Below are positions 1,423 through 38,882 of a stretch of DNA of 40,263 bases, one piece after another; positions within the stretch are counted from its first letter, which is position 1; each line of letters begins with the position of its first letter. A model generated the notes under the pieces. The model was given only the letters and a program-made list of their open reading frames with translations, searched no databases and had not been told where the DNA came from. The translations under genes were made by a program, and so were the position numbers. The stretch comes from Candidatus Ventrenecus avicola (lineage in GTDB: Bacteria > Bacillota_I > Bacilli_A > RF39 > UBA660). Location: the NCBI GenBank assembly GCA_018711945.1, contig DVHP01000100.1, positions 1 to 40,263 on the forward strand, in the 5' to 3' direction.

Positions 1423-2977
1423 GTTTTAACAGGTCAAAAACATGAAAAAAAAGAAAACAGTTTATAAACCAGTATAATTGAAGGGATTATAGTCATATTT
1501 TAAAGAAAAAAACGATGTAATTTTGTGCATGAATCTTGCCAAAATATCTAAAATGTATATTTTATGTGATAAAATGATTGATTTGAACTCTTATTTTAAG
1601 TACTATTGATAATAGGAGTGATAAGAAATGATAGCAAAAAGAACAGTAAGAAAAACTATAAAAAAAGAAAATATTTCTATAGAAGATATCTCAAAAGAAA
1701 GTATTGATAACTTGATAGAACAAATTAACAAACAAATTGATGATCCTCGTCAAAAAAAGAAAAAAACATATAAAATATGGGACATCGTAATCACTGTATT
1801 TTTAGCTGTAATAGCTAATTGTAACGATTGGGATGATATTGTTGTGTTTGCTAAAAGCAATTATAAATTCTTGAGAAAATATTTAAAAATGACAGGTGGT
1901 ATTCCCTGTTCAAAAACCTATGAAAGAATCATTTCTTGTATAGATTCCTCTCAGTTAGAATCCATCTGTCTATTTTTCTTAACAGATATTATTGGGATCA
2001 AAAAGAAAAAAATGAGAGATATCATTAATATAGATGGTAAGGTGGATAAAAGTAGTTCCTATTTAAAATTAAATGAAAACGGAGACGTAGAAGCCGTAAA
2101 ATCTTTAAATGTTTTAAATGCATATTCTAATCAATATGGCATATGTTTGGCTAGCGAAAAAATAGAAGATAAAACAAACGAAATTACTGCTTTTCCTACC
2201 ATAATAGACCGCCTTAATATCCGTAATAAAATCATAACGGTAGATGCTATAAATACTCAAAAAGAAAATTGCACGATCGTAAAAAAGAAACGTGGAGACT
2301 ATTGTTTTGCTGTGAAAGAAAATCAACCGAATCTACATCGAGATATCGTAGATTACTTTGATGAAGAGACTTTAAAAGAACTATCAAAACATTCTGAAAA
2401 TTACAAGAAAACGATTGAAACAAGAGGAAATGAAACCATTATTTATGAATGTTATCAAACTACGGATGTGGACTGGTATTTTGAAAAGAAATTATGGACA
2501 GGATTAAAATCTATCGGGGTCATCAAAAAGATTTTTGATAATCCATACAACAAAAACAAACAGACAGAATATAGATACTACATAAGTAGTTTACCATTAG
2601 ATGTGAATCTATTTTATAATTGTATAAGATGTCATTGGTCCGTAGAAAACAAGTTACATTGGCACTTAGATTTCACTTTTAAACAAGATGACAATACTAC
2701 TGTGGATAAAGAAGCTTTACTAGGATTACAAATTATTAAGAAAATGGCTTTAGGTATATTAAATCCTATTAAAACGAAGCAAAAAATAAGTATGAACAAA
2801 TTAAGATTACAGATTTCTTTTCATGTCGAAAGTGAGATCGCTAAAATCTTTCAATTTTACGCAAGATAAGGTCTCAAAACAGCTTCGTTTTTTTCATAAT
2901 AAAATGCCGATAATCCCTTTTTAAATAAGGTATTTATCAGCATTTATAAATTCTTTCGTGTCTTTAACCTGATAAAC
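1423..2977 (+). mobile_element. ISAs1-family insertion sequence; boundaries tentative
   Basis: A single transposase ORF is flanked by colinear imperfect inverted segments. Pairs are gttttaacaggtcaaaaac (1423-1441) vs rc of gtctttaacctgataaac (2960-2977), aagggattat (1481-1490) vs its rc at 2910-2919, and gaaaaaaacga (1505-1515) vs its rc at 2894-2904. No clear target-site duplication was seen. Confidence 0.5.
1628..2869 (+). CDS. ISAs1-family (H-repeat-associated) DDE transposase
   Basis: 413-aa ORF with the family-typical C-terminal signature HWSVENKLHWHLDFTFKQDDN. An RBS aggag lies upstream of the ATG. Confidence 0.9.
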   Translation: MIAKRTVRKTIKKENISIEDISKESIDNLIEQINKQIDDPRQKKKKTYKIWDIVITVFLAVIANCNDWDDIVVFAKSNYKFLRKYLKMTGGIPCSKTYERIISCIDSSQLESICLFFLTDIIGIKKKKMRDIINIDGKVDKSSSYLKLNENGDVEAVKSLNVLNAYSNQYGICLASEKIEDKTNEITAFPTIIDRLNIRNKIITVDAINTQKENCTIVKKKRGDYCFAVKENQPNLHRDIVDYFDEETLKELSKHSENYKKTIETRGNETIIYECYQTTDVDWYFEKKLWTGLKSIGVIKKIFDNPYNKNKQTEYRYYISSLPLDVNLFYNCIRCHWSVENKLHWHLDFTFKQDDNTTVDKEALLGLQIIKKMALGILNPIKTKQKISMNKLRLQISFHVESEIAKIFQFYAR

Positions 2978-7137: not shown

Positions 7138-7174
7138 TTTTGTTTTTTCTTATAATGATTATGAGGTTTTGGAT

Positions 7175-9022
7175 ATGAAGTTTTGTTCTGAAATATTTTT
7201 TTCTAAGAAATTTGTGACATCAGAAGAATGGGAGGAGTTTATTCAAGCTATTTCTTTTTATAATGGTATTTTTCGAAAATGGAAGTTATGGGTGATGTTA
7301 GAGCAAAATCAACTAAGGTATTTTGTTCAAACCCGTCGTTTTTTACCAGTTACACTTCATTCTCTTAAAGCTTTTGTTTTAAAAAGTACTTCTATGTTTC
7401 CTTTAAAATATTATGAGCATACATGGATTGGTAAGTTAAAATCAGGTAATAATATTATTGATTTAATACAATCTTGTGAATCGTTTCATAAAGGAAAATT
7501 TTGTTATTTGGAATTTATTTTTCAAAAAATAAATCAAGGAAAAGTGTTTAGTAGTGCTTATTATTATTTAGAAAAACATCAATTGGTTCATCGCTATAAA
7601 ATTCTTTTTCGAGCTCCTGCTGATATTTTAGCTGTAGATTACACTAAAAATCCATTTTTCTGTTTAAAAGGAATTCCTAAGTATTTAGAAATGAAAGAGT
7701 CTTTGAATTTGCTACAAAATAGTAGTCAAAATGCTCTTATTAAAATAGATCCATTTCCTTATCGATCAAATAATTTATATTTTGGCCAGTCTTCTTTTTC
7801 ATTCGATAAGCATTCTTTGGTTTTGGGGTCTTCGGGATGTGGAAAATCTAAATTTATTAGTTTATATATCAAAAATATTTTAGAAAATTCTGAACTTTCT
7901 AGAAAATATAAATTTGTTGTGATTGATCCTCATGCGTCTTTAGAAAGAGATATTGGGGGGCTTGGAAGAACGATTGATTTTTTAAGTATTCAATCAAGTA
8001 TTCGTTTATTTACATCATATGGTGGAGATATTCTTGCTGATACAGAACTTATGTTAGATTTCATGCGTTCTTTGTTGACAGATCAGTTTTGTTCTAAATT
8101 AGAAAGAGTGTTAAGAAATGCTATTTATTTGCTTTTTAAAAATCAATCCTTTTGTTTTCAAAATTTAAAGAAGCTTCTTTTGGACTTAGAATATCGTAAT
8201 CAGTTGATACAACTGCAAAAAGCTGATTTACCAAGCAGTGTGTTAGATTTTTTTCTTACAGAGTTTCAGGAAATCAAGTCTCAATCTTATGGCGAAGCTA
8301 TTTCACCCATTATTGGTTTTTTGGATGAGCTTCTTTTAGTGCCGGCTTTTTCTTACGAAGGAAAACAAGATAGTTTAGAAGTTACAATAGAGAAAGAGTC
8401 ATTGACGTTGTTTTCTCTTAATCGAATGAAATTAGGAAGGCATGTAACTAAAACGATTGCAGGACTCATTATGAATCAATTATTTCAGTTGATTCAGCAA
8501 AAGTTTCTATCACAACACATTGTTTTTATTGTAGATGAAGTTTCTGTCATTGAAATGCCCGTTCTTTCTAAATTTTTGTCAGAGGCTCGTAAGTATGGTG
8601 TATCTTTAATTTTAGCTGGTCAATATTTTAATCAAATTTCTAAAGAATTAAAGGAATCTATTTTGGCAAATGTGGTAAATTATTATTTATTTCGGTTATC
8701 GCGTGTTGATGCGAATGAAATTGTTGATTCTTTAGGAATGAAAATACCTGTGGATGATTCTAGAGAAAAAAAGATCGAGATACTTACAGGACTTAAAAAT
8801 AGGGAATGTATCGTGAGGATAGAAGATCAAGGAAAGCTTATTTCTCCTTTTAAGGGGATTACTTTGGATTATACTAGTGTTCCTAGAAAAATGGAAAAAA
8901 TAGATCAACCTATTGTTTCTTTTCCTTCGTCTAAAAATTCTATTACAACATTTCAGATTGGGAAAACGGTATCTTTGCATGATATTTTAGTATCTAATTC
9001 TACAAGTAGAAAAGAGGTGTAG
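7175..9022 (+). CDS. HerA/FtsK-superfamily (DUF87-like) P-loop ATPase with an unassigned roughly 210-aa N-terminal domain
   Basis: Walker A LGSSGCGKSKF, Walker B IVFIVDEVS, and ARKYGVSLILAGQ. Start moved to the ATG at 7175 (GAGG 8 nt upstream) rather than the TTG at 7169. Confidence 0.8.
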   Translation: MKFCSEIFFSKKFVTSEEWEEFIQAISFYNGIFRKWKLWVMLEQNQLRYFVQTRRFLPVTLHSLKAFVLKSTSMFPLKYYEHTWIGKLKSGNNIIDLIQSCESFHKGKFCYLEFIFQKINQGKVFSSAYYYLEKHQLVHRYKILFRAPADILAVDYTKNPFFCLKGIPKYLEMKESLNLLQNSSQNALIKIDPFPYRSNNLYFGQSSFSFDKHSLVLGSSGCGKSKFISLYIKNILENSELSRKYKFVVIDPHASLERDIGGLGRTIDFLSIQSSIRLFTSYGGDILADTELMLDFMRSLLTDQFCSKLERVLRNAIYLLFKNQSFCFQNLKKLLLDLEYRNQLIQLQKADLPSSVLDFFLTEFQEIKSQSYGEAISPIIGFLDELLLVPAFSYEGKQDSLEVTIEKESLTLFSLNRMKLGRHVTKTIAGLIMNQLFQLIQQKFLSQHIVFIVDEVSVIEMPVLSKFLSEARKYGVSLILAGQYFNQISKELKESILANVVNYYLFRLSRVDANEIVDSLGMKIPVDDSREKKIEILTGLKNRECIVRIEDQGKLISPFKGITLDYTSVPRKMEKIDQPIVSFPSSKNSITTFQIGKTVSLHDILVSNSTSRKEV

Positions 9023-11352: not shown

Positions 11353-12482
11353 TTAATAGTAATTGTTAGTATTTTCTTTGGTTGTTTTGTCTATTATGAT
11401 TAATGGAATATAGATTTCGTCTTTTGTATAACCTGCATGAAGTGAATAGAGTTCTGCGTCGCCATCTGTTAGTATGGCTTTATTTGTCTTGGCAATTGAT
11501 AGATAATCTCCCAAAGCATTTTTGAAGAGAGGATTTTCTATCCCGTCACCAAATAGTTTACTGCTTATTACTTCTTCTTTAGAATATAGGTCAAAGTCGT
11601 TTTTAAATGTTTCTTTAAATTTTTTTTCAAATTCTTTTTGCAACTCTTTTTTGACTTTGAAAGATGTCGCGCGTGGTTCGATAGAAGTAGTTCTTTCTAG
11701 CATATTTAGTAGTTCTGGGTAGTCTTTTAAATAAAGGTTTTCTGTTTTAATGTGTCCATGGTCGGCAACAATAAAAATTATAGTATCATCTAGTTTTTTG
11801 GAAAGTTCTTCTATTTTGTTGTTTCTTGTTTTTATGAGTTCTTTGGCTTCTTTACTATCAGGCCCTAGGTCATGCATTGTGTGATCTGGTTCTTCATCAT
11901 ACGCATAAATGTATTTTTTCCTTCTTTTTGGCATTTCTTTTCAATGATGGAAATCATCTCATCTAAGTCTTTGTATTTTGTATCTTTAAATGGAAATAAA
12001 GATATAGCATGGTATTTGTTTTGTTCATTTATTTCATCAACAATTGTTTTAGGACTTAAATACTTTTTTTGTACTTTAGGATATTTTGTACTAGTTTTTC
12101 CTGTTTCTTTATTTATGCTTGTGTATAATTCTACGGTTTCATCAATGGGACTTACATACATATTCCAACCAAGATAACCATGTTCTATAGGATTTAGTCC
12201 TGTTTGCATAGAGGTTGTCGCTGCGGTTGTTGTAGCTGGAAATACTGTAGTTATTTCTTAGTATTTGTGTTTTATTAAAAAGTCATCTTTTGATAAAGTG
12301 CGTTCTAATATTCTGGAACCCATACCATCAAATAGTATGACCACTACATTTTTTGGCTGTTTTTCTTCTAATAATTTATCTATGTAATCTAGTGTATCGT
12401 GTTTATAGTCTAATTCAAAATATTTTCTTATGGAACACGCTAAATTTGTTAGGCATTCGTTATAATTATTTTTTACTAACAT
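11353..12482 (-). pseudogene. alkaline-phosphatase-superfamily (nucleotide pyrophosphatase/phosphodiesterase-like) gene with an in-frame TAA and a frameshift
   Basis: Three track ORFs form one gene. ...DFLIKHKY*EITTVFPATTTAATTSMQTGLNPIEHGYLGW has an in-frame TAA at 12258-12260. ...KCQKEGK/KYIYAYDEEPDHTMHDLGP needs a frame change in the T6 run at 11914-11919. The metal-site motif VADHGH is present. Confidence 0.8.
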
Positions 12483-12828
12483 ACTCTTTCCTTTCTAGTT
12501 CTACTCTGATTCCTAATACTCCATATTTTTCTTGTTTTTCTGTTGGATAAAATTGCTCTAATTCTTTTTTTAATGTTTCTTTTGTGATGCTTTTATCTGC
12601 TAAAATAGAAATATCAAAATCTTGAAATAATTCTTCAAAGTTTTCATATCTTAATAATCCGATAATTTTAGCTTGAAAGCTTTCTTTTAAATCTGGTTCT
12701 TTTAAAAAGGTAATTGTTTCTCCGAGATTTAGGTTTTTTCTTTTTTCGTCATATACTCTAATTTCTATTCTTTTTGTACCATGTAACATGTAGTTATAAT
12801 AATTTGGTTGTAATTTCATAGTCGTCAT
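12466..12828 (-). CDS. ASCH (PUA-like) domain protein
   Basis: MKLQPNYYNYMLHGTKRIEIRVYDEKRKNLNLGETITF is a typical ASCH N-terminus. The gene overlaps the downstream pseudogene start by 17 nt. Confidence 0.75.
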   Translation of the reverse strand: MTTMKLQPNYYNYMLHGTKRIEIRVYDEKRKNLNLGETITFLKEPDLKESFQAKIIGLLRYENFEELFQDFDISILADKSITKETLKKELEQFYPTEKQEKYGVLGIRVELERKEYVSKK

Positions 12829-12842
12829 TTTTTTCCTTCTTT

Positions 12843-13733
12843 CTATTTTATTTTTTTTCTTTCACAATGTTTGTAATATTCTTCTACAGTGATATTTGAT
12901 TTTGGTTTTTTATATTCATATAAACATAAGTTGTTTTTGTTATAGTTGTTTTTTAATTCATCAAGAATAAATTTTTCTTTTACATCTAATAGTAGTTCTT
13001 CTAATGATGAGTATTCATGTATTCCTTTCCATTTCTCCCATGCATGTTCAAACCAGTAGTATTTGTTGTCTTTTTGATAGGTTAGAAATGTATGGGTTGG
13101 ACATTTGTCGTTATCATAATGGACGATGAAATAAGTTTTTATATTTTGATATCCTTTAAAATAGTATCTTTCTAATTCTACTTGATCCCAACATGCTCCA
13201 ATTTTATTTTCTATAATTTCTTTTGGAGATTGTAATCTGTATTTTTTAGAGAATGTTTCATCAATTGTTAAGTGTTTCTTTTTTTCGTCATCTACCCATC
13301 CATATTCTATTTGTTCTAAAAACGTCATAATTTCTTTTTCGGTATAGTAGTTCCATATACTGAGTGAGCCTGTTGCTTTTATAGGAAGTATTGGGGTAAT
13401 ATTATCTAATATCCATGCATATCGTCCTTCCCTGTAATCCCCACAGATGTATTCTTGATGATTCTTTTCCTTCATATTCTCTACATATTCTTTTGTCATA
13501 TAAATACAATCTACTAGGTTACATTTGCAGATAATGTTTCCAAAATTTAAAGGAGTGTTTTCTATTAAAGTAAAAAGTTCGGTATTGTCTTTCCAATTTT
13601 TTGGCATTTTTGTGGAGCTTGCATGGATATAAAGCTCTCCTCGGTAATCCGTTTTCCAACTTCTGGTTTCAATCCACTTTTTCTTTTCTTTAATTAACGT
13701 TGCATATGGCTCTGTGAGACTTAGTACTTTCAT
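12843..13733 (-). CDS. ASCH domain fused to a transglutaminase/papain-like Cys-His domain
   Basis: N-terminus MKVLSLTEPYATLIKEKKKWIETRSWKTDYRGELYIHAS is paralogous to 20714-21124. The C-terminus has IGACWDQVELERYYF...PTHTFLTY...YWFEHAW. Confidence 0.7.
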   Translation of the reverse strand: MKVLSLTEPYATLIKEKKKWIETRSWKTDYRGELYIHASSTKMPKNWKDNTELFTLIENTPLNFGNIICKCNLVDCIYMTKEYVENMKEKNHQEYICGDYREGRYAWILDNITPILPIKATGSLSIWNYYTEKEIMTFLEQIEYGWVDDEKKKHLTIDETFSKKYRLQSPKEIIENKIGACWDQVELERYYFKGYQNIKTYFIVHYDNDKCPTHTFLTYQKDNKYYWFEHAWEKWKGIHEYSSLEELLLDVKEKFILDELKNNYNKNNLCLYEYKKPKSNITVEEYYKHCERKKIK

Positions 13734-14505: not shown

Positions 14506-14602
14506 GATAACCTCTTTTATATTTTTATTATATCATGGTTTTGGAAGTTACAGTTGCTTTCTTTTTGTTTTCTCGTTACAATAGATGTCAAACGGAGGCA
14601 TT

Positions 14603-15025
14603 ATGAAATATAAGAAGTTGATTTTTGACTTAGATGGGACATTAGTTAGTGATAGAGAGTCCATGAAATATGCTTTTTGTTGCGTATTAAAAGAATTAGG
14701 AATTGCACCTTCTATGGATTTGGCTTTGGAATGGTTAAAGTTTGATGATGCTTATTGGCATGAAATTGAAAGCGGAAGAACCGTATTTCCAGAATATGTG
14801 CAAACAAAGGAAGATAGAAGAGTTTATGCTCAGGCGATGAGATTTGTTTTATTTTTTGAAAGTTTTCCTATATCTTTTGAACAAGCCATTCATTTCAATG
14901 ATGTTTATTGTGAAAATTTAGGAATGAATATTGTACCGATTTTAGGAGCAGAAGAGTTACTTTGTTTTTTAACAGAAAACTATGAAATTTATATTGCAAC
15001 AAATGGCCCTAGAAGGTCAGCTTAA
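14603..15025 (+). pseudogene. HAD-superfamily hydrolase, C-terminally truncated
   Basis: Motif I is LIFDLDGTLVSD and motif II region is YIATNGP. The ORF then stops, and HAD motifs III/IV are absent from all frames downstream. GGAGG precedes the ATG at 14603. Confidence 0.6.
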
Positions 15026-16003: not shown

Positions 16004-16030
16004 ATAAAAAAAGAAAACTTATAGGTTTTC
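16004..16030 (-). terminator. intrinsic terminator at the end of the pnkp-glycosylase operon
   Basis: On the minus strand gaaaac-ctataa-gttttc is followed by T7. The hairpin includes the stop codon. Confidence 0.6.
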
Positions 16031-16738
16031 CCAAATTCTTTGGTATTGTTTTAGTTGTATTTCTCCTTTTATTTGAGCAGTTGGATGGTATAGTGGAATG
16101 ATGATAACATTTTGTAAAGCTATTATTGGAGGAGTTTCTATTGTTTTGGATAAGTTTTTTTCTATTTTAAAATGATAAATTTCTGATAATGATAAAAGAG
16201 GGTAGTAACCTAGTGTTATAATGATTTTCGGATTTACTATTTCTATTTGTTTTTTTAAAAAACAAGAACAATTTTTTGTTGATTTGTTTAAATCAATATT
16301 GTTGCCACGATAAGTTGTACCGGTTCTTGCACACATAATTGCGTTGGTGATGAATAGAGAATTTAATATAGTTTCATCTATTTTTATATTGTAAGCCTTA
16401 GCAGAAAGAATTAGATATTTTGTTAGCATCTTTTTGGTTAAGCTAGGTTCAGTGTCTATTAAATTTTGCCAGTGTTTTTCTGTGGGATTTTTTTGATATT
16501 CCGTGTGTAATTTTTGCATGTCTATATATGGGCCCCAATCTTGCCCAATGACAAAAATTTTTGCATCTAGTCTGTGAAACCAATCGGTCCACATAGAGGG
16601 AATAGCTTGGCAAAACTCTTGGCTTTTGTAAATGTTTATTAAAGAGCAATCCGTGCCATTTTTCTTTTTTAAAGACAGACATTTTTGACAGGAAGATAAC
16701 TCTTTTAGCAAATGTTTAAATTTTTCTTCTTTGCTCAT
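16019..16738 (-). CDS. UDG-superfamily DNA glycosylase-like protein
   Basis: FVIGQDWGPY (motif A-like), FITNAIMCAR and PLYHPTAQ (motif B-like). The ATG at 16738 overlaps the upstream TGA (ATGA at 16735-16738), and AGGAGAG lies upstream. Confidence 0.75.
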   Translation of the reverse strand: MSKEEKFKHLLKELSSCQKCLSLKKKNGTDCSLINIYKSQEFCQAIPSMWTDWFHRLDAKIFVIGQDWGPYIDMQKLHTEYQKNPTEKHWQNLIDTEPSLTKKMLTKYLILSAKAYNIKIDETILNSLFITNAIMCARTGTTYRGNNIDLNKSTKNCSCFLKKQIEIVNPKIIITLGYYPLLSLSEIYHFKIEKNLSKTIETPPIIALQNVIIIPLYHPTAQIKGEIQLKQYQRIWENL

Positions 16739-18414
16739 ATTCTCTCCTTTTTTTTGCAATTTTTTCGCAGTGGACATGTGGCACATTTCTTTTTTCCACA
16801 AAAACTATTTCCGACTTCCCATAAGTATTTGTCAACTTCACTAGGTGTTAGATTTAATTGCTTTCCTGCTTTTATCCATGTGGAAGATAACTCGTGCAAT
16901 TTCTTTTTTGTGGGCTTATTTGTATCAATGATATTATTTAAATAACTAATTTCAATATCATGCCGGTCTAATGGGATAAAACTCATTTCATTATCTGAAA
17001 TTTTACATACTTTGGAGTCTATAATAACTCTGATTAAAAGTCCTCCTGTTTTTTGACCAAAACAATGGAATGATTGAATGAAAAAGTAGAGTTCTTCAAA
17101 CGAATTTAAAGTACTTATTTTATATATTAAGCTGTCAAACTTCGATAATTCTTCGGATAACTTTATCCACTTTTTGGTGGCAATATTTGGATAACGTGGA
17201 TGAATGTTTTGACATAGTAGTATTTTTAAATTATTTTCTTTTTTTTGAAAATTTTTTACAACATAATTTGGTTGGAATAGTTCTGGATGATGTAAGTATG
17301 CTTGTATCATATTTTTATGATAAGTTTCCGAACGCATTCCATAATTTAAAAGACAAGAAAAAAACATATAGGTAATCCATTCATTTGTTTTTGGAAGTAT
17401 TGTATTAGGATAACCTACATTAGCTATTTTTTGTGAGTAATTTATAAAATAGTTCTGCAATGTTTTTAAGCATAATACTGCTTTTTTATAATTTGAGACT
17501 GTGTTCATATTAAAATACGTTCTTTGTAAATCGTTGATGACTCCATTAATTAAATTTAAATCTGATGGAATAATCCAATTTACATTAGCTAATTTAAATA
17601 ACACTAAAGGAATGATAGCCCCACTTCTTGCACCATCCATCCATTTTGGATTTCCAGGCATTAATTTGTATAACTCCTCTAAAGAAATATCGTAGAATAC
17701 TTTTTCTGTTCCTTTTATATAGTCTTCTAAACTTAGCATGTATTTATGTATGTTATCGTGAAATAATGTGTTTTCTATTAAGTTAAATCCTGTTAGTAAT
17801 TCGAAACGTTCTTCGCCACCTGTAAATATTGCACAGTCATAATCGGTATCTAAGTTTAAAGAGGCACATTTTTCTTTAATGAAGTTTTCCATTTCTTCTA
17901 TAGTATTGCCACTGTAGGGATTGTTTACTTTGTCAAAATTATTTAGTAAGTCTGCAACTCCAAGCTTTAAGTTTTTGGTATCGGTAATTTTATTTTGATA
18001 AAATGTTACTAATTCTGTTGTTTTCCCACCCATATTAATAATTAATACTTTTTTTCCATTGTAATCGTTATCCATTGCTTTTCCTAAATAGTAGTTTTCA
18101 ATACCGTGAGAAATAATATTAAAATGTAAGTCAAATTTATCATTAAATAGTTTTACTAGTTCTTGTTTTTTGGAAAGAGTAAGTTCTCTAAATATTCCAG
18201 TTACATAGATATGAGTATTTTCGTATTTTAAATTGTACGTTTCTTTTAAATGTGTAAAGTAATCACATAATTCTTGCAAGTTTTCTTCACTGATGCCTTT
18301 TTCTTTGTCAAAATTATTTTTAAAATAAATAGAATGTTCTTCTAATAATGTTAGTTCTTTGTCGTATTCATAAACTTTAATTGTTGATGAACCTAAATCA
18401 ATATAGTATTCCAT
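16735..18414 (-). CDS. fusion of a Ppx/GppA-like ASKHA phosphohydrolase domain with an EndoIII-like HhH-GPD glycosylase domain carrying a Cys cluster
   Basis: N-terminus: YYIDLGSSTIKVY, IYVTGIFRE, LIINMGGKTTELV. C-terminus: HCFGQKTGGLLIRV (HhH with Lys), IPLDRHDIEIS (catalytic Asp position), FCGKKKCATCPLRKNC (C-x4-C-x2-C-x5-C). ATG at 18414 lies 8 nt after GGAG. Confidence 0.7.
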   Translation of the reverse strand: MEYYIDLGSSTIKVYEYDKELTLLEEHSIYFKNNFDKEKGISEENLQELCDYFTHLKETYNLKYENTHIYVTGIFRELTLSKKQELVKLFNDKFDLHFNIISHGIENYYLGKAMDNDYNGKKVLIINMGGKTTELVTFYQNKITDTKNLKLGVADLLNNFDKVNNPYSGNTIEEMENFIKEKCASLNLDTDYDCAIFTGGEERFELLTGFNLIENTLFHDNIHKYMLSLEDYIKGTEKVFYDISLEELYKLMPGNPKWMDGARSGAIIPLVLFKLANVNWIIPSDLNLINGVINDLQRTYFNMNTVSNYKKAVLCLKTLQNYFINYSQKIANVGYPNTILPKTNEWITYMFFSCLLNYGMRSETYHKNMIQAYLHHPELFQPNYVVKNFQKKENNLKILLCQNIHPRYPNIATKKWIKLSEELSKFDSLIYKISTLNSFEELYFFIQSFHCFGQKTGGLLIRVIIDSKVCKISDNEMSFIPLDRHDIEISYLNNIIDTNKPTKKKLHELSSTWIKAGKQLNLTPSEVDKYLWEVGNSFCGKKKCATCPLRKNCKKKERI

Positions 18415-18460
18415 AATAATCACTCCTAGTATTGTAACGCATTTCTATTTTTTTGAATAG

Positions 18461-20644
18461 TTATTTTTTTATTTGCTCTTTTAGAAAGTTTTTTCTTACT
18501 TCGATGATGTTTATGTTTGTAATGTCTGTGTCTTTGTTTTGATATGTTTCTTTTAAGTAAGTCATGAAGTTTTTTTCTAAAGCGTTTTCGTCTTTGATTT
18601 TAAATTTATTTGTTGTTAAAGCAGTTTCCATTTTTGCTCTTAGATATTTCCATGTGTCATAGTAATGTGTTTTTGTTTTTAACATAGTAAAGTTACTATC
18701 TTCTATTACAAAGCCTTCTATGTTGTTGTTTTTCCATTGATAATTTTCTTGAGTAGTTTCTTTTAAAATATCTTCTAATTCTTCATATGTTTTTGCTATG
18801 TAAGCTAATTCTTTTATTTTGATATTATTTTCTGTAGCAAACTTTTGTAGTTCTTCGTAAGGTAACTTGGAAAAATCTGGTGTATTGTGAATAAAATCTA
18901 GTAATATGATGTCTGGTTCTTGATATTCAATAATGTGTGGGTCGTTTAAAGGGTCTATGACTTCAAATACCGCGGTTAGATTTTCTTTTGCTAGTTTTTG
19001 TTTCAGTTTCTTTATCTTTGTTGGTGTTAATTTGTTATAAAATATAGTTTTAAAGTATTCTATATAATTTCCTGTATTTACCTTTTTTGAAGCAAAGAAA
19101 AATTCGTCATTCCAAACAGATAGAATTCCTAAGAAACCATTGTATTTTAAGTAGAAATGAGCAGGGAATATCATACTTTTTTTAAGGTTTTCTAATTTTG
19201 TTTCAGGACGTTCTTCAATTTTAAAGAATTTGTTATAGCTACGGGCTACGATGTGATATTTTGCAGTGTCAATAAATAAGCCTCTTGCTTGGGTGGTTAT
19301 GTTGTTCCATATTTTATTATAAAAGGCCTCTTTTGAAAAATTAAATGATGAAAGATTTTTTTCTAGTTCTTTTTCAAAAATATATTTGTTTTTTCTTAAG
19401 TCTTCTACTAAATTATATGTTGCTGTTTCTGTGATTAAATTTGGATTATAGTTATTATTTTTTATTTCTGTGTATTTTTGACTATCATTTTTTGTCAATG
19501 TTAAAACACGTAGATGACCACCATGTTCGATGTCCCCTTCGAGGTTTATAGAATAAATATATGTGTTGTATGGTAACTTTAAGTGGTTTCTATGACCATG
19601 AATTTGGTAAGTTTTTTCTTTTTGGCTCTTCATATATTCGTTATAAATTTTATCGATGTCAACATCATATTTGTCTATCCCGTATATGAATGTGTTGGTG
19701 CTATAAAAGTCTAGAGGTTTTTCTGGGATATAGGGAATTCCGCCATGAGTAATGAGATAATTTTTCCCATTAAAAGTAATGTAAGCAAGTTGGGATAGTT
19801 TTTTGATAAAACCACGTATTTCACTTTTTTTGAGTTTTTTTTGTTCAAATTCTTCAATTGTATTTTTGATATCATAATCCATTTTAAATTCATCATCACA
19901 GGCGTATTTGTATAATTTATCTTCATGATTTCCAACAAGAAATATCATATTTTTGTGTTCCATCAATTCTTTTAAATACTTAAAAGTATGGTAATTTTCG
20001 ATACCACGGTCAAAGTAATCTCCTACGAAAATGTAGAAATCTTGAGGTATTACTGGATATTTATTGAAGTACGTTTTTAAGGCAGTGTAAGAGCCATGAA
20101 TATCGCCTATAATATGAATGTTTTCATAGTTATTTAAATCTCTAGGAGTGGTTTTTGTGATAGTTTCGAAATCTTCTGGTTTAATGATGCGAAAAGAAGA
20201 GGGGATTTTTTCTTTTTTGAAAGCGGTGTATACTCTTTCGATACTTGAAGGTGGAACAATCCGAAAATCTTCTCTTTGTAAATTTCTTTTTAATACTTCT
20301 TCTTTTGGAATATCTGTAAAATCTAAGACATAGGTGTGGTAACGATATTTTTCAGCGAGCTTTTTGTATACTTTAAAAGACTCATCGACATAAGCATGAA
20401 CTGCATCGATGATCGTGAATTCTCCTTTTTTCATTCTTTCTTCTAATAACTGATATAGCAAATCCCAAACTTTTTTGTTATTATATTGTGGAATTGTTTC
20501 AGTGTAGTTAATTGTTAATTCTGGTGATGAAAACATCAGTCTTATCGTATCGGAACTTAGTGTAAATCTTTCTAGGTGATGTTCTTTAATAAAAGTGGTT
20601 TTTCCACATCCCATGGCTCCTCTTAAAATAATTAGTTTTCGCAT
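18461..20644 (-). CDS. pnkp: polynucleotide kinase-phosphatase-ligase (bacterial Pnkp architecture)
   Basis: Kinase P-loop LRGAMGCGKTTF. Metallophosphoesterase GDIHG, GDYFDRG, GNHE, THGG, HGHRN. Ligase-like KYNG (motif I), FEVIDP, EGFVIED, MLKTKT. ATG at 20644. Confidence 0.85.
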   Translation of the reverse strand: MRKLIILRGAMGCGKTTFIKEHHLERFTLSSDTIRLMFSSPELTINYTETIPQYNNKKVWDLLYQLLEERMKKGEFTIIDAVHAYVDESFKVYKKLAEKYRYHTYVLDFTDIPKEEVLKRNLQREDFRIVPPSSIERVYTAFKKEKIPSSFRIIKPEDFETITKTTPRDLNNYENIHIIGDIHGSYTALKTYFNKYPVIPQDFYIFVGDYFDRGIENYHTFKYLKELMEHKNMIFLVGNHEDKLYKYACDDEFKMDYDIKNTIEEFEQKKLKKSEIRGFIKKLSQLAYITFNGKNYLITHGGIPYIPEKPLDFYSTNTFIYGIDKYDVDIDKIYNEYMKSQKEKTYQIHGHRNHLKLPYNTYIYSINLEGDIEHGGHLRVLTLTKNDSQKYTEIKNNNYNPNLITETATYNLVEDLRKNKYIFEKELEKNLSSFNFSKEAFYNKIWNNITTQARGLFIDTAKYHIVARSYNKFFKIEERPETKLENLKKSMIFPAHFYLKYNGFLGILSVWNDEFFFASKKVNTGNYIEYFKTIFYNKLTPTKIKKLKQKLAKENLTAVFEVIDPLNDPHIIEYQEPDIILLDFIHNTPDFSKLPYEELQKFATENNIKIKELAYIAKTYEELEDILKETTQENYQWKNNNIEGFVIEDSNFTMLKTKTHYYDTWKYLRAKMETALTTNKFKIKDENALEKNFMTYLKETYQNKDTDITNINIIEVRKNFLKEQIKK

Positions 20645-20675
20645 AGCAATCACTTCCGTTTCATTGGATTTATTG

Positions 20676-20712
20676 TAACGAAAAAATGAAGAACCCTCAA
20701 GTGTTTCTTCAT
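20676..20712 (-). terminator. hairpin plus T-run between the ASCH gene and pnkp (terminator or attenuator)
   Basis: atgaagaa (20686-20693) pairs with ttcttcat (20705-20712). On the minus strand it is followed by TTTTTTCGTT. Confidence 0.5.
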
Positions 20713-20713
20713 T

Positions 20714-21124
20714 TTATAAAGATGTTTTTATTTTAATCTTGTCATTATAGTTCCATAATCCTAATTGGCCATTGATGTAGATAAGCTCGATGGTCTGGAT
20801 ATTTTCTAATTTAAATCCATAATAATTATTTTCTTTATTATTTATTTGATTTTCATAAACGATAGACTTTTTCTTTTTTAGCATAGTTTTTGCTTCTTCG
20901 TTTATTTTTATGCAATCTGTTAAGTCTGCGATACCTAGAATGCAACCGGTAGGATATTCTAAATGAAATTGTTCATATTTTTTTGTGGCGTTTTTGTCTA
21001 TTCCTTTACCTGCATGAATTAGTATTGGGCCACGATAGTTTGTCTTCCATGTGCGAAATTCATATTCTTTTAATCCTGCGATGATTAAAGAGGCAAAGGG
21101 TTGCTTGATTGTTATTACTTTCAT
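20714..21124 (-). CDS. ASCH (PUA-like) domain protein
   Basis: MKVITIKQPFASLIIAGLKEYEFRTWKTNYRGPILIHAG is an ASCH N-terminus. Confidence 0.75.
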   Translation of the reverse strand: MKVITIKQPFASLIIAGLKEYEFRTWKTNYRGPILIHAGKGIDKNATKKYEQFHLEYPTGCILGIADLTDCIKINEEAKTMLKKKKSIVYENQINNKENNYYGFKLENIQTIELIYINGQLGLWNYNDKIKIKTSL

Positions 21125-29469: not shown

Positions 29470-30495
29470 ATGAGGCAACAAGATATAGAAAACCTTGTTT
29501 TGTGGTATCAAAAAAATAAACGAGATTTGCCATGGAGACATACGAAAGATGCTTATAAAATTTGGATTTCTGAAATTATGTTACAGCAAACGAGGGTCGA
29601 AGCAGTGAAGCGTTATTATGAAGTATTTCTTAAATCTTTGCCTACTGTGTATGACTTGGCTCAAGTTAGTGATGATGAACTATTGAAGCTTTGGGAAGGG
29701 CTAGGGTACTATAGTCGGGCTCGTAATTTGAAGAAATGTGCGAGTGAGTTAGTTCGAAGTTATCAAGGGGTTCTTCCTGATGATGAAAAGGAACTTCTTT
29801 CGTTGCCTGGTATTGGGGAATATACGGCAGGAGCGATTTTGTCGATTGCTTATTTAAAACCTGTTCCAGCGATTGACGGGAATGTCATGCGTGTGTTATC
29901 GCGGGTTTATGAAGATGAGAGGGATATGTTAAGTTCGCAAGTTCGTAAGGAATATAGTGAAATTTTGAGAAAATTTATCAAAAAGTATCCTCCAAATGAT
30001 TTTACACAGAGTTTTATAGAACTTGGGGCGGTGGTTTGTGTGCCGAATGGAACTCCTTTATGTGAAGAATGTCCTCTTAAAAGGTGTTGCAAGGCTCATC
30101 GTCATCATAAGGAACTTCTTTATCCACTGAAAAGTGTGAAGAAACCACGGAGAATAATTTCAAAAACTGTTTTTGTTTTTGAGTATTGCGGACGTTATTC
30201 TATTTTGAAAAAAGAGGAAGGATTACTTTCTGGTACGTATGAATTTCCTAATGTTGATGAAAAAATGTGTCAAGATGATGTCAAAAAGTATTTGGCTCAA
30301 CAAGAGTGTTCTTTTTCTAAAATTGTATTTCTTGGTGAATTTAAACATATTTTTTCTCATTTGGAATGGCATATGAATGCTTATGTTATCTCTCTTCAAA
30401 AGCCTTTTAAGGATTATTTATATGTTGGATTAGAAGAAATAAAGATGAATTATTCTATTCCATCTGCTTTTCAGAAAATCTTAGAGAAAATCTAG
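29470..30495 (+). CDS. mutY: A/G-specific adenine DNA glycosylase
   Basis: LPWRHTKDAYKIWISEIMLQQTRV, HhH LPGIGEYTAGAILSIAY, 4Fe-4S loop CVPNGTPLCEECPLKRCC, and a C-terminal Nudix-like domain. Confidence 0.9.
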   Translation: MRQQDIENLVLWYQKNKRDLPWRHTKDAYKIWISEIMLQQTRVEAVKRYYEVFLKSLPTVYDLAQVSDDELLKLWEGLGYYSRARNLKKCASELVRSYQGVLPDDEKELLSLPGIGEYTAGAILSIAYLKPVPAIDGNVMRVLSRVYEDERDMLSSQVRKEYSEILRKFIKKYPPNDFTQSFIELGAVVCVPNGTPLCEECPLKRCCKAHRHHKELLYPLKSVKKPRRIISKTVFVFEYCGRYSILKKEEGLLSGTYEFPNVDEKMCQDDVKKYLAQQECSFSKIVFLGEFKHIFSHLEWHMNAYVISLQKPFKDYLYVGLEEIKMNYSIPSAFQKILEKI

Positions 30496-31954: not shown

Positions 31955-32365
31955 ATGAAAAAAGTTGTTATTGCCGGAAGTGCTAAATTACAAGAAAAAA
32001 TAAATGGTTGGAAAAATTACTTTGAACATAAAGGTTTTGAAGTTTTAGATTATCCTGTGGCAATTGATGAACAGTATTTTATGGAAATATATCCAGGGGT
32101 TCATAAAAAATTTTTTGAAAATATTATGAAAACCGATTATTTGTTTGTCATGAATGAAGATAAGAATTCCATCAAAGGATATATTGGAGCTGAGACTTTT
32201 GCAGAAATGTGCTTTGCTGTGATACAGAAATTGCTTTATGATAAGCCTATTGTAGTAGTACTTTATCAAAAACCTTCTGAAAGTGTATTTTCTTATGATG
32301 AAGTTTGTTTATGGCATAGTCTTGGGTGGATATCTTTTTTAGAGGAGGTAGAGCATGAATTATAG
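31955..32365 (+). CDS. nucleoside 2-deoxyribosyltransferase-like (NDT/Rcl fold) protein
   Basis: MKKVVIAGSAK... and IGAETFAEMCFAV (Glu in the expected catalytic position). The call is by pattern only. Confidence 0.5.
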   Translation: MKKVVIAGSAKLQEKINGWKNYFEHKGFEVLDYPVAIDEQYFMEIYPGVHKKFFENIMKTDYLFVMNEDKNSIKGYIGAETFAEMCFAVIQKLLYDKPIVVVLYQKPSESVFSYDEVCLWHSLGWISFLEEVEHEL

Positions 32366-32918
32366 AAAAGAAATAGAACAGTATGTTCCTTTTAATGAAC
32401 AAGAGGTTTGTGATAAAGAGCAATTTTTAAAATTTATAGATACTTTTGATGATGTATTAACTAGGGATAATATTTTTGGACATCTTACTGCTTCTGCTTT
32501 TGTTGTAAATAAAGAAAGAAATAAGATGTTAGTTGTTTATCATATTATTAATGATGGCTGGATTTATCCTGGAGGACACGTGGATGGTGAGACAGATTTT
32601 TTAAGTGTTGCTGTCCGAGAAGTTAAAGAAGAAACTGGGTTAGAGGTTCGAGTATTAAATCCTTCTATTTTTTCTTTTTCTTCTGCTCCTGTAAAAGGGC
32701 ATGTTAAAAGGGGAAAATATGTTTCAGCTCATTTGCATTTTGATATTATTTATTTGATGGAAGCAGATGATACTTTGCCTTTAAAATATCGTGAAGATGA
32801 ATCGAATGGTGTTAAATGGGTAACGTTTGATGAGGCAACAGATAAAAGCATGTGTGATTTTATAAGACCTATTCATAAAAAGTTAATTCAGAAGCTTCAA
32901 GAAAATGATTATTTATAG
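32355..32918 (+). CDS. Nudix hydrolase
   Basis: Nudix box GGHVDGETDFLSVAVREVKEETGLEV. Overlaps the upstream gene by 11 nt. Confidence 0.85.
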   Translation: MNYRKEIEQYVPFNEQEVCDKEQFLKFIDTFDDVLTRDNIFGHLTASAFVVNKERNKMLVVYHIINDGWIYPGGHVDGETDFLSVAVREVKEETGLEVRVLNPSIFSFSSAPVKGHVKRGKYVSAHLHFDIIYLMEADDTLPLKYREDESNGVKWVTFDEATDKSMCDFIRPIHKKLIQKLQENDYL

Positions 32919-32928
32919 GAGTAGTTAT

Positions 32929-33558
32929 ATGGAAAATAAAATACAAAATATTATGCAATTTTATACTATGTGTGTAAAACTTAAAAATACTATTCGAACT
33001 GGACCTTTGGTTTGGAATATAAAAAGAGAACGTGTAGAAAGTGTCGCGGAACACATTTATGGAACTCAAATGCTTGCGATTGCTATTTATTATCAGTTTT
33101 CTTATTCGTTGGATTTGAAAAGAATAATTTTTATGTTAGCTATTCATGAGTTGGAAGAAATTTTAATTGGAGATTATGCTTTTTATCAAATTTCTAGGGA
33201 AGAAAAATTAATACAAGGAAAAGATGCTGTAGAACATATTTTAAAAGATTTTGTTGATAAAGAAGAAATTGTAAATCTTTTAGATGAGTTCAATGAACGG
33301 GTAACAAAAGAGGCTAAGTTTGCTCATCGTTGTGATAAATTGGAATGTGATTTGCAAATTAAGTTGTATGAACAAGAAGGTTGTTTTGATTTGATGCATC
33401 AAGAGAATAATCCTCTTATAAATGACTTTTATGTAAAAGGATTATTAGAGAGTGAGAAAAGTTTAGCAAATGCTTGGATAGAATTTGATAGAAAAGAGTA
33501 TGAGGAAGATCCTAATTTTCTTGTGATTATTGATTATTTAAAGAAACATGAAATATAA
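32929..33558 (+). CDS. HD-domain phosphohydrolase (YfbR-like 5'-nucleotidase family), with HE in place of HD
   Basis: VAEHIYG, LAIHELEEILIGDY, AHRCDKLECDLQ. ATG at 32929 lies 7 nt after AGGAG. Confidence 0.7.
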   Translation: MENKIQNIMQFYTMCVKLKNTIRTGPLVWNIKRERVESVAEHIYGTQMLAIAIYYQFSYSLDLKRIIFMLAIHELEEILIGDYAFYQISREEKLIQGKDAVEHILKDFVDKEEIVNLLDEFNERVTKEAKFAHRCDKLECDLQIKLYEQEGCFDLMHQENNPLINDFYVKGLLESEKSLANAWIEFDRKEYEEDPNFLVIIDYLKKHEI

Positions 33559-35593: not shown

Positions 35594-36526
35594 TTAATAA
35601 TTTGTACATCTAGTTAAATGATATGGTTTTAAAGTAAGGTTTTTATTTTTCTTTTGCATAAATAAATAATCATTAATATCAATGCTATTATATTTATGAT
35701 TCAACTTTTGATTAATCATATCTATTACAGTAAGCATATTTGCACGAATTTCAACTTCGTACATTGAATTAGCAGGAATTTCAATTTGATTATCAACTAT
35801 TTTTGATAATTCATCATCATAATTTAATATTCCTATTCCTCTCAAAATCTGAGGTATTTTATAATCAGCACAACCTACTAAATGTGTGTAATCAACTTCG
35901 GTTTTTTCTTTTTGTTCTCTGATATGTAAAATATCTGAGGTTAATAATTGTGCTAACTTATAAAAATATATTGTTTGATTATTATAAGTTCTTTCATCTT
36001 TAAAGCTAGGGAAATATTTTATAATTGTTTCAAATAATTCTGCATCTGAAGTAATATGCTTTGTATATTGATAAAAGTTTCCTTGCATTTTTTCATTTAC
36101 AATAGTACTTATTTCTTTTATTATTTTAAATCTTTCTTCTAATAAGGGAATTTCTATATTTCCCTTTAAAATATTAGAAAAACATTCTTGACTAACATTT
36201 GAAAAATCAGTAGTTTTTGATTTCTTAACGTACTTTAATAAAGCATATAATAAAGCAATTGAACCATCTAATTTATCAGAATCTGTTTCTATAGACCATT
36301 TAGGGCTTCCCCAAAAAGAGAAATCAATTGATTCATAAATTAATAAAAAATTAATAATTGTTTCAACCGGTAATTCTAATAATCCAAATGGAGATGATGA
36401 AAGCCAGTGTTCCATTTTTATATTTTCAATTTTTTCTATAAATTGATTTAATTTTTCTTCATTTATAGACACATACTTTGAATTTTTTGATACATATTTA
36501 CAGCTTTCTATTATATTTTCTAACAT
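35594..36526 (-). CDS. queuosine-salvage family protein (DUF2419/QNG1-like)
   Basis: 310 aa. IYESIDFSFWGSPKW...DGSIALLYALLK matches the remembered DUF2419 core. Confidence 0.65.
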   Translation of the reverse strand: MLENIIESCKYVSKNSKYVSINEEKLNQFIEKIENIKMEHWLSSSPFGLLELPVETIINFLLIYESIDFSFWGSPKWSIETDSDKLDGSIALLYALLKYVKKSKTTDFSNVSQECFSNILKGNIEIPLLEERFKIIKEISTIVNEKMQGNFYQYTKHITSDAELFETIIKYFPSFKDERTYNNQTIYFYKLAQLLTSDILHIREQKEKTEVDYTHLVGCADYKIPQILRGIGILNYDDELSKIVDNQIEIPANSMYEVEIRANMLTVIDMINQKLNHKYNSIDINDYLFMQKKNKNLTLKPYHLTRCTNY

Positions 36527-38837: not shown

Positions 38838-38882
38838 CAGTATCACCCAATAATATTATATATAGTTATAAAAATATTTCAA

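Follow-up and report, generated by a model that had tools for sequence, protein, structure and literature searches.

We examined a 40,263-nucleotide stretch of contig DVHP01000100.1 from Candidatus Ventrenecus avicola (the window; G+C content low, about 28%), focusing on four co-directional minus-strand open reading frames (ORFs). In the direction of transcription, these encode an ASCH-domain protein, a 730-amino acid kinase/phosphoesterase/ligase, a 562-amino acid protein joining a Ppx-like part to an HhH-GPD-like part, and a protein resembling uracil-DNA glycosylases (UDG). An earlier note on this DNA had read these genes as a self-contained module in which two glycosylases take the place of Hen1 beside the RNA repair enzyme Pnkp: the glycosylases would excise a base from DNA or RNA, a lyase activity would nick the strand, and the break would be healed and resealed by the kinase, phosphoesterase and ligase. 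Our ORF calls agree with the note on the gene arrangement, and every motif listed there for the second protein (GAMGCGKTT, GDIHG, GDYFDRG, GNHE, GHRN, KYNG, EGFV and LKTK) is found in its 730-amino acid translation. The note also saw no methyltransferase-like ORF nearby, and Pfam gave no methyltransferase domain in the 43 window ORFs scanned (a set that left aside six ORFs of 100-160 amino acids, ORFs below 100 amino acids except 12258-12482, and two ORFs that overlap scanned genes out of frame). The features of the cluster and of the rest of the window are collected in Table 1.

Table 1. Features of the window, with positions counted from its first nucleotide; the four-gene cluster and its parts come first. 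Residue numbers are those of the 730-amino acid ORF.
Feature	Position	Strand	Basis or remark
Four co-directional ORFs: ASCH, kinase/phosphoesterase/ligase (730 amino acids), Ppx-HhH (562 amino acids), UDG-like	16019-21124	-	ORF calls
ASCH-domain protein, 136 amino acids	20714-21124	-	PF04266, E 5e-8
AU-rich 10-bp hairpin and U6 run between ASCH and ligase genes	~20676-20712	-	sequence
Promoter-like site TTGAGG-17-TACAAT	20700-20672		overlaps the hairpin
Predicted trifunctional RNA heal-and-seal enzyme	18461-20644	-	Pfam AAA_33, Metallophos and RNA_lig_T4_1
Predicted P-loop polynucleotide 5'-kinase, residues 4-170	20644-20144	-	domain of the above
Predicted dinuclear metallophosphoesterase, residues 171-440	20143-19334	-	domain of the above
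Predicted Rnl1/Trl1-type ATP-dependent RNA ligase, residues 441-730	19333-18461	-	domain of the above
Ppx/GppA-like protein, likely an ASKHA phosphohydrolase	17527-18414	-	PF02541, PDB GppA 6pc0
CAA (Gln) codon joining Ppx and HhH parts in frame	17526-17524	-	TAA stop in L002 and L003 (alignment)
Divergent HhH-GPD DNA glycosylase/lyase-like protein, 257 amino acids from ATG 17508	16735-17508	-	structural model and Foldseek
UDG-superfamily protein, family-4-like clade, 239 amino acids	16019-16738	-	PF03167
DDE transposase	1628-2869	+	
HerA/TraG-like ATPase	7169-9022	+	weak PADLOC mad8 and HerA matches
UDG-superfamily protein with N-terminal YunG domain, 307 amino acids	9872-10795	+	
Apparently decayed Phosphodiest gene	11353-12482	-	comparison with L002
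ASCH-domain gene	12466-12828	-	
ASCH-domain gene	12843-13733	-	
Membrane protein, 239 amino acids	13786-14505	-	
Apparently decayed HAD hydrolase gene	14585-15025	+	comparison with L002
Canonical MutY (HhH-GPD and NUDIX_4)	29470-30495	+	Pfam
NUDIX protein, then HD_3 5'-nucleotidase-like protein	32355-33558	+	
Q_salvage (Qng1/DUF2419) queuosine-salvage protein	35594-36526	-	
Schlafen AlbA_2 and HATPase_c_4 protein	37530-38846	-	weak pAgo-associated matches

The ORF of the second gene opens at a GTG codon (20653), and homologues begin at its residue 4; the start codon is likely ATG 20644, which would give a protein of 727 amino acids. Its first domain matches AAA_33 (E 9e-14) and the CthPnk kinase structures 4gp7 and 4jst in the PDB (E about 4e-7), and its second matches Metallophos (E 5e-17). 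Across 28 diverse homologues, invariant positions comprise the Gly and Lys of the kinase P-loop together with Asp35 and Arg38, the phosphoesterase motifs GDxHG, GDxxDRG, GNHE and GHRN, and K503, G506, E646, G647, K659 and K661 of the ligase. The description of this protein as a complete three-domain Pnkp stands for the kinase and the phosphoesterase but not for the ligase, which is of the Rnl1/Trl1 type. The ligase domain aligns to the full PF09511 model (RNA_lig_T4_1, positions 1-227) with 148 bits against a cut-off of 28.3, has nucleotidyltransferase motifs I (KxxG), IV (EGFV) and V (KxK) and, at its N-terminal end, a sub-domain resembling that of Rnl1, and finds its best PDB sequence match in fungal Trl1-LIG (E 4e-11). 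With the NCBIfam Pnkp model TIGR04075, the score is 98.8 bits (cut-off 750) and the match is confined to residues 5-306, and no Pnkp-ligase family is among the Pfam matches of the 730-amino acid protein at E ≤ 0.01. In Shuman's classification of RNA ligases, the Pnkp ligase (Rnl4) is completed by the N-terminal domain of Hen1, and Rnl1 and Rnl6 form separate clades (PMC6379707). Since the ligase here is Rnl1/Trl1-type and not the Rnl4 type that Hen1 activates, the absence of hen1 is expected and is no anomaly; the premise of a 'missing' Hen1 was wrong.

Judging from conserved catalytic residues and relatives, the kinase would put a phosphate on 5'-OH ends, the metallophosphoesterase, of lambda-phosphatase type, would strip 2',3'-cyclic or 3'-phosphates, and the ligase would seal the RNA break using ATP. 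The protein is thus probably a self-contained RNA repair enzyme, with tRNA its probable substrate and without need of Hen1. Catalytic residues, family context and distribution in phages together suggest that it probably counters tRNA-cleaving toxins.

Three known repair systems provide a frame for this enzyme. Like the T4 pair Pnkp and Rnl1, it would combine 5'-kinase activity, removal of 2',3'- or 3'-phosphates and ATP-dependent sealing, with a PF09511 ligase in both, and like that pair its family is common in phages and sometimes adjoins tRNA-repair genes. It differs in being one polypeptide with a dinuclear metallophosphoesterase, where the T4 phosphatase is a HAD (DxDxT) domain, and in having just about 65 residues C-terminal to the nucleotidyltransferase core; the tRNA-specificity domain of T4 Rnl1 is considerably longer. 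In sequence searches, these 65 or so residues had no detectable similarity to the tRNA-binding domain of Rnl1 or to the RxxR domain of Rnl6. With Clostridium thermocellum Pnkp-Hen1 it shares a homologous P-loop kinase and lambda-phosphatase-like phosphoesterase in the same order, but its ligase is Rnl1/Trl1-type instead of the Hen1-dependent Rnl4, and no hen1 was found in the window ORFs scanned. Fungal and plant Trl1 (Rnl6) is likewise a trifunctional heal-and-seal enzyme, and Trl1-LIG is the closest solved ligase match. The domain order of Trl1 (ligase, kinase, cyclic phosphodiesterase) is, however, the reverse of that in the window enzyme, whose ligase has no evident RxxR 2'-phosphate site past motif V; a metallophosphoesterase replaces the 2H cyclic phosphodiesterase, so the product should bear a 2'-OH and not a 2'-PO4. 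In effect, the window enzyme is T4 Pnkp and Rnl1 in one chain with healing domains of the CthPnkp type.

When 1.84 billion representatives were scanned in full, 946 clusters of this ligase family emerged at E ≤ 1e-30; of the 150 clusters listed, most have all three domains at full length and share 33-65% identity. Among cultured phages, 172 records carry the family (Bacillus SPbeta-like, Staphylococcus Twort/K-like, Lactobacillus and others), several under the annotation 'RNA ligase' or 'tRNA ligase', and IMG/VR holds at least 452 matches. We surveyed its gene neighborhoods at 164 loci (80 from metagenomes, 4 of the Onthocola type and 80 viral). In the 84 metagenome and related loci, the recurrent neighbors are RlaP (8), PemK/MazF (8), Thg1-like (7) and CCA-adding enzyme (5) genes, of which RlaP is a known associate of RNA ligases and RNA repair (PMC12776372). 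Where informative neighbors are present, they are thus tRNA/RNA-repair and toxin genes. No Hen1-like neighbor recurs in the 164 loci, and the only methyltransferase-like clusters among the most recurrent ones listed are Dam and one that, by eye, resembles Dcm. In 41 of the 80 viral loci, the repair gene lies about 1 kb downstream of a gene for a PemK/MazF-like endoribonuclease, an arrangement that extends over a large clade of IMG/VR contigs of mostly 75-140 kb or so (L175-L216 and others) and could be a pairing of toxin with repair. A full-text search of a collection of papers returned no biochemical study of a single-chain kinase/phosphoesterase/Rnl1-type ligase.

The third ORF of the cluster turned out to be two genes. 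The earlier note described a Ppx/GppA-EndoIII-like fusion, and a single ORF does run through both parts in the window, but the two are joined by one codon that is a stop in sister strains. We compared the window with three independent metagenome contigs (L002-L004) whose ligase protein is 98% identical to that of the window; the DNA of L002 is 96-97% identical. In L002 and L003, the contigs that reach that far, separate genes encode a Ppx-like protein of 296 amino acids and an HhH protein of 257 amino acids, with the junction reading ...GVINDL* RKFFN MNTVS... (the asterisk marking the stop), against ...GVINDLQRTYFNMNTVS... in the window. The fusion is a one-base stop-to-Gln read-through in the window strain only, or a sequencing error. 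A functional Ppx-HhH fusion as a general feature was rejected, given the separate genes in relatives and the stop at the join in sister strains.

The Ppx part is a marginal match to PF02541 (29.5 bits against a cut-off of 27), scores 47 against a cut-off of 307 with TIGR03706, and matches GppA in the PDB (6pc0, E 1.8e-4); an ASKHA fold is likely. Its ATG (18414) is preceded by GGAG. In all relatives, the Ppx-like gene is separate from the HhH gene, at about 296-314 amino acids; most relatives are stand-alone proteins of about 310 amino acids, some have other fused domains, and none reaches into the HhH part. The fusions, to nucleoside 2-deoxyribosyltransferase, NUDIX and peptide deformylase domains, recur among these relatives (P0027-P0029, P0045 and P0019-P0021) and speak for a role directed at nucleotides and not for polyphosphate hydrolysis. 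Parcubacteria and DPANN archaea supply other relatives of this size, for which no fused domain is recorded.

The HhH part, the C-terminal 257 residues of the ORF, has no significant Pfam match, including to AGOG (PF09171) and Ogg-HhH (PF22175); of 26 relatives, 9 match AGOG (best E 0.001) and 2 match Ogg-HhH (best E 8.5e-4). An AlphaFold2 model built with 25 homologues has a predicted local distance difference test score (pLDDT) of 89 and a predicted template-modeling score of 0.84. The top 40 Foldseek matches to this model are all enzymes of the HhH-GPD fold, and all are DNA glycosylases except Qng1 (probability 0.5-1.0). They include the Ogg2 enzymes from M. jannaschii and T. maritima as well as MutY, EndoIII-3, AGOG, MagIII and Qng1; Ogg2, MutY, EndoIII, AGOG and Qng1 match with probability 1.0 and template-modeling (TM) scores of 0.5-0.68, and the lowest E-values, only 2.5e-3, belong to the DNA glycosylases Ogg2 and MutY. 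Across 26 sequences of the family, GQKTGG (with Lys153) and P-x-D181-R-H-D184 are invariant, a DKYLW motif is invariant or nearly so, and of the C-terminal C-x4-C-x2-C-x5-C three Cys are invariant and the fourth is kept in at least 90%. In a profile alignment, the Lys and Asp line up with GIGYK and IDRH of MjaOgg (3fhf). This signature is that predicted for a bifunctional glycosylase/AP (apurinic/apyrimidinic) lyase with an EndoIII-like iron-sulfur loop. As in Ogg2, AGOG and EndoIII, the family combines the HhH-GPD fold, the hairpin Lys and catalytic Asp, and, at the C terminus, four Cys resembling the iron-sulfur loop of EndoIII and MutY. Unlike them, it has marginal sequence similarity to known members and a C-x4-C-x2-C-x5-C spacing; that of EndoIII is C-x6-C-x2-C-x5-C. 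Despite the EndoIII-like Cys, the protein is nearer to Ogg2/AGOG than to EndoIII. The reading of this part as a Lys-containing HhH-GPD enzyme is borne out.

Members of the HhH family are stand-alone proteins of about 250 amino acids except for three fusions: to a UDG-like protein (P0022), to the 239-amino acid membrane protein that is also encoded in the window (P0024, 587 amino acids), and to a region with an HD-like motif, seen by eye (P0030). The fusion with the membrane protein comes from another genome (P0024; also locus L060) and suggests a functional link between that protein and the HhH domain. No match to the family was found in a pattern-seeded scan of IMG/VR or by tblastn against cultured phages, so the family is probably not phage-borne. 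Because a canonical MutY is also encoded in the window, the HhH family represents an extra glycosylase. At 14 loci (for example L049, 9204-9983), the gene directly upstream of the HhH gene, in the same orientation, encodes an unannotated helical protein of 260 amino acids. We considered this as a second HhH-GPD protein on the strength of G-T-K and P-D-T-H motifs, which hhalign did not support (probability 0.6%).

The UDG-like protein matches PF03167 with 40.6 bits against a cut-off of 24.3 and the family-4 UDG structure 4zbx (E 8.9e-5). This, with the structural matches of the HhH protein, upholds both folds proposed in the earlier note. Its features are a C-x2-C near the N terminus, GQDWGP as motif A, ITNAIMCAR, and YHPTAQ as motif B; GQDWGP is invariant in the clade, while motif A of family 4 is GE(A/G)PG. 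Scores stay below the family-4 thresholds (TIGR00758, 31.3 against 125.3; NF040953, 38 against 250), with partial matches covering residues 147-252. The protein is nearest to family 4 and UdgX. Its ATG overlaps the TGA of the HhH gene as ATGA (16738-16735), as had been described, and is preceded by the ribosome-binding site AAGGAGAG. The single phage homologue of the clade, spr_108 of phage SPR, has no ligase gene within 12 kb and so is not an independent case of linkage between the two.

The ASCH gene, correctly identified in the earlier note, is intact in the window; in L002-L004 a frameshift splits it, and the copies are called as 112 amino acids (about 3928-4367 in L002). Between it and the ligase gene, the hairpin and T-run reported earlier do exist, but as a weak terminator-like element: a 72-nt fold has -12.6 kcal/mol (z = -1.64), the terminator scan did not call it, and a promoter-like site overlaps it. 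Two further ASCH-domain genes at lower window coordinates bring the total in this island to three. One of these two proteins matches a transglutaminase-like domain (DUF553) weakly and below threshold, and L002 carries a 334-amino acid gene in place of the window's 120-amino acid ASCH gene.

Whether these genes belong to one pathway depends on how far they travel together. We surveyed the HhH family with one genome per species, obtaining 78 loci, 77 of which had an HhH ORF in a follow-up search. None of these 77 has the ligase gene within 10 kb, and conversely no HhH, UDG, Ppx or ASCH homologue lies within 6-10 kb of the ligase gene at any of the 84 metagenome and related loci or the 80 viral loci. 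In the nearest other ligase clade (69-70% identity; Candidatus Onthocola and its relatives), the genes on the flanks of the ligase gene encode an unknown 230-amino acid protein and a DUF3800 protein, with no Ppx, HhH or UDG genes beside it, and Ppx-like homologues at 56-78% identity lie in unrelated contexts. The four-gene arrangement is confined to strains with a 98%-identical ligase protein (L002-L004). Non-conservation in relatives, which the earlier note had itself named as grounds for abandoning the linkage, is what the 0/77 HhH and 0/164 ligase loci reveal. We consider it likely that these are independent accessory genes lying side by side in this species alone, and not a single pathway.

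Several observations weigh against this conclusion, and some of them are what speaks for a joint excise/heal/seal function. The four genes are packed tightly, with gaps of about 46 nt and 69 nt and one overlap, and the terminator scan called no intrinsic or strong terminator between them, including from the ligase gene to the UDG gene. They are probably co-transcribed, and shared function can underlie co-transcription. The gene order is the same in the three independent metagenome contigs, with the co-directional tight spacing kept alongside the 98%-identical ligase; the DNA of these contigs is only 3-4% diverged from the window. The surveys relied on pattern-seeded searches and spanned neighborhoods of 8-10 kb (6 kb for viral loci). 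The structural model of the UDG-like protein is of low confidence (pLDDT 60, from a two-sequence alignment); Foldseek with this model gave UDG-superfamily structures alone among the 50 matches reported.

What does recur is the association of the two glycosylase-like genes. A UDG-like gene is present at 15 of the 77 HhH loci (adjacent in 6) and at 11 of the 37 loci whose two flanks each span at least 5 kb; genes like that for the 136-amino acid ASCH protein are present at 8 (adjacent in 5) and Ppx-like genes at 4. The HhH and UDG-like pair, often with ASCH, is the sole conserved functional unit in the cluster, and the pair is translationally coupled here. Most likely, the UDG-like enzyme would flip a uracil-like or modified pyrimidine out of DNA and excise it; the HhH-GPD enzyme would then excise a second class of base or cut the abasic site by beta-elimination, using a Lys Schiff base and the Asp; and binding or prior processing of the modified base may fall to the ASCH protein. 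Between accessory repair or surveillance and attack on modified foreign DNA, the balance tips slightly toward the former. The neighborhoods of the HhH gene are highly variable, holding NUDIX, HAD, GNAT, deoxyribosyltransferase-like and small SAM (S-adenosylmethionine) methyltransferase genes (the last at 20 loci), along with RhuM, Fic, the PDC-S13 family (Bro-N-like in appearance) and serine recombinase genes (10 loci).

The alternative that survives best sees in the HhH-GPD, UDG-like and ASCH proteins an anti-phage base-excision defense resembling Brig1 and Brig3-BapA, a possibility we regard as real but less than probable. Brig3 is a 5hmC glycosylase of the UDG superfamily that is encoded in one operon with the ASCH-fold glucosyl hydrolase BapA and acts in phage defense (PMC13160076), a precedent for a UDG-superfamily glycosylase with an ASCH-fold partner. 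Among known systems, Brig3-BapA comes nearest to the co-occurrence of UDG and ASCH described here, which resembles it in bringing the two kinds of gene together, in this case recurrently around the HhH gene and often near candidate defense genes. The set seen here differs in adding a predicted HhH-GPD glycosylase/lyase, sometimes fused to the UDG. By this account, a hypermodified phage base might be excised and the HhH lyase might turn the resulting abasic sites into strand breaks, a sequence of steps for which we would give only modest odds; tentatively, too, the RNA repair enzyme would be a separate anti-ribotoxin conflict gene in the same island. Consistent with defense, PADLOC candidate families PDC-S05 (RhuM), PDC-S13 and PDC-S04 (Fic) lie within 10 kb at 25 of the 77 HhH loci and a serine recombinase at 10, neighborhoods vary strongly, the spread of the family is patchy, and several metagenome-assembled genomes have more than one HhH locus, with 5 or 6 copies that look split or decayed. 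The organism already has MutY. However, the four proteins gave no significant match to PADLOC 2.0 (2023), which predates Brig/BapA, but only weak ASCH matches, and no clear defense system lies beside the cluster in the window. Many HhH neighbors look like housecleaning genes (NUDIX, HAD, GNAT, small methyltransferase, deoxyribosyltransferase-like), and the PDC-S families are candidates only, with RhuM, Fic and Bro-N marking mobile elements generally. The conflict system that the earlier note held in reserve thus gains some support from context.

It is less likely that the island serves nucleotide and nucleoside salvage or housecleaning, with enzymes that act on modified nucleotides in free form and not on polymers. 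This would assign to the HhH enzyme an activity like that of the queuosine-salvage glycosidase Qng1, to ASCH one like that of N4-acetylcytidine (ac4C) amidohydrolases, and to the Ppx-like, NUDIX and HAD proteins the role of phosphatases. Qng1/DUF2419 does top the Foldseek matches by query-normalized TM score (0.62), and the neighbors include NUDIX, HAD and deoxyribosyltransferase-like proteins and, by eye, histidine-phosphatase-like and 5'(3')-deoxyribonucleotidase-like ones. Ppx-like relatives are fused to Nuc_deoxyrib_tr or NUDIX, and the hosts are small-genome gut Bacilli. An ASCH-domain protein, EOLA1, reportedly deacetylates ac4C in its free form, for salvage (preprint 10.64898/2026.08.01.741249). 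Against this, the HhH family keeps the signature of a DNA glycosylase/lyase (the hairpin Lys, an Asp about 28 residues on and the EndoIII-type Cys4 loop), the UDG clade retains family-4-like DNA-glycosylase motifs, and the best Foldseek E-values are those of the DNA glycosylases Ogg2 and MutY.

The chemistry bears on the remaining alternative, the excise/heal/seal module. After cleavage by beta-lyases of the HhH-GPD type, a one-nucleotide gap separates a 3'-unsaturated aldehyde from a 5'-phosphate; the aldehyde is usually cleared by an AP endonuclease of the Xth or Nfo type or a 3'-phosphodiesterase, and the gap needs a polymerase before ligation. We know of no Pnkp-type phosphoesterase that removes a 3'-unsaturated aldehyde. 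With a 5'-phosphate, a blocked 3' end and a gap, the kinase would be idle and the RNA ligase unable to seal alone. A self-contained module with glycosylases in place of Hen1 is therefore very improbable and largely refuted by the non-conserved linkage: all three catalytic centers of the repair enzyme are intact, but the genes part company even in the nearest clade, the Rnl1/Trl1-type ligase was never expected to have Hen1, the informative neighbors of its family are tRNA-repair genes, and the ends left by beta-elimination do not suit it.

The remainder of the window contains further genes of related kinds. Together, the MutY, the UDG with an N-terminal YunG domain and the Qng1-type protein mark the organism as rich in such enzymes. 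The L002 region matching the YunG-UDG gene is called as two genes (192 and 233 amino acids). Compared with L002, the window has a 376-amino acid Phosphodiest gene broken into three ORFs and a HAD hydrolase truncated by a deletion of about 290 bp. To either side of the cluster, the transposase, HerA/TraG-like and Schlafen genes may be signs of DNA that is mobile or conflict-related.

A Hen1-less Pnkp re-partnered with glycosylases would, if true, have been a new repair logic, and the evidence says otherwise. The single-chain kinase/phosphoesterase/Rnl1-type ligase is among the commonest RNA-repair architectures in Firmicutes phages and gut metagenomes, and such a trifunctional enzyme is easily mistaken for a Hen1-dependent Pnkp. 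Neither the HhH-GPD family nor the UDG clade is annotated, and genetic coupling links the two with one another and with ASCH proteins. By analogy with Brig3-BapA, the HhH lyase, GQDWGP-type UDG and ASCH protein may, though we think this the less probable outcome, constitute a new anti-phage 'glycosylase-lyase restriction' system of gut Bacilli. If the HhH/UDG pair does target modified phage DNA, the known reach of glycosylase-based immunity would come to include Gram-positive gut bacteria, and a lyase step would join it.

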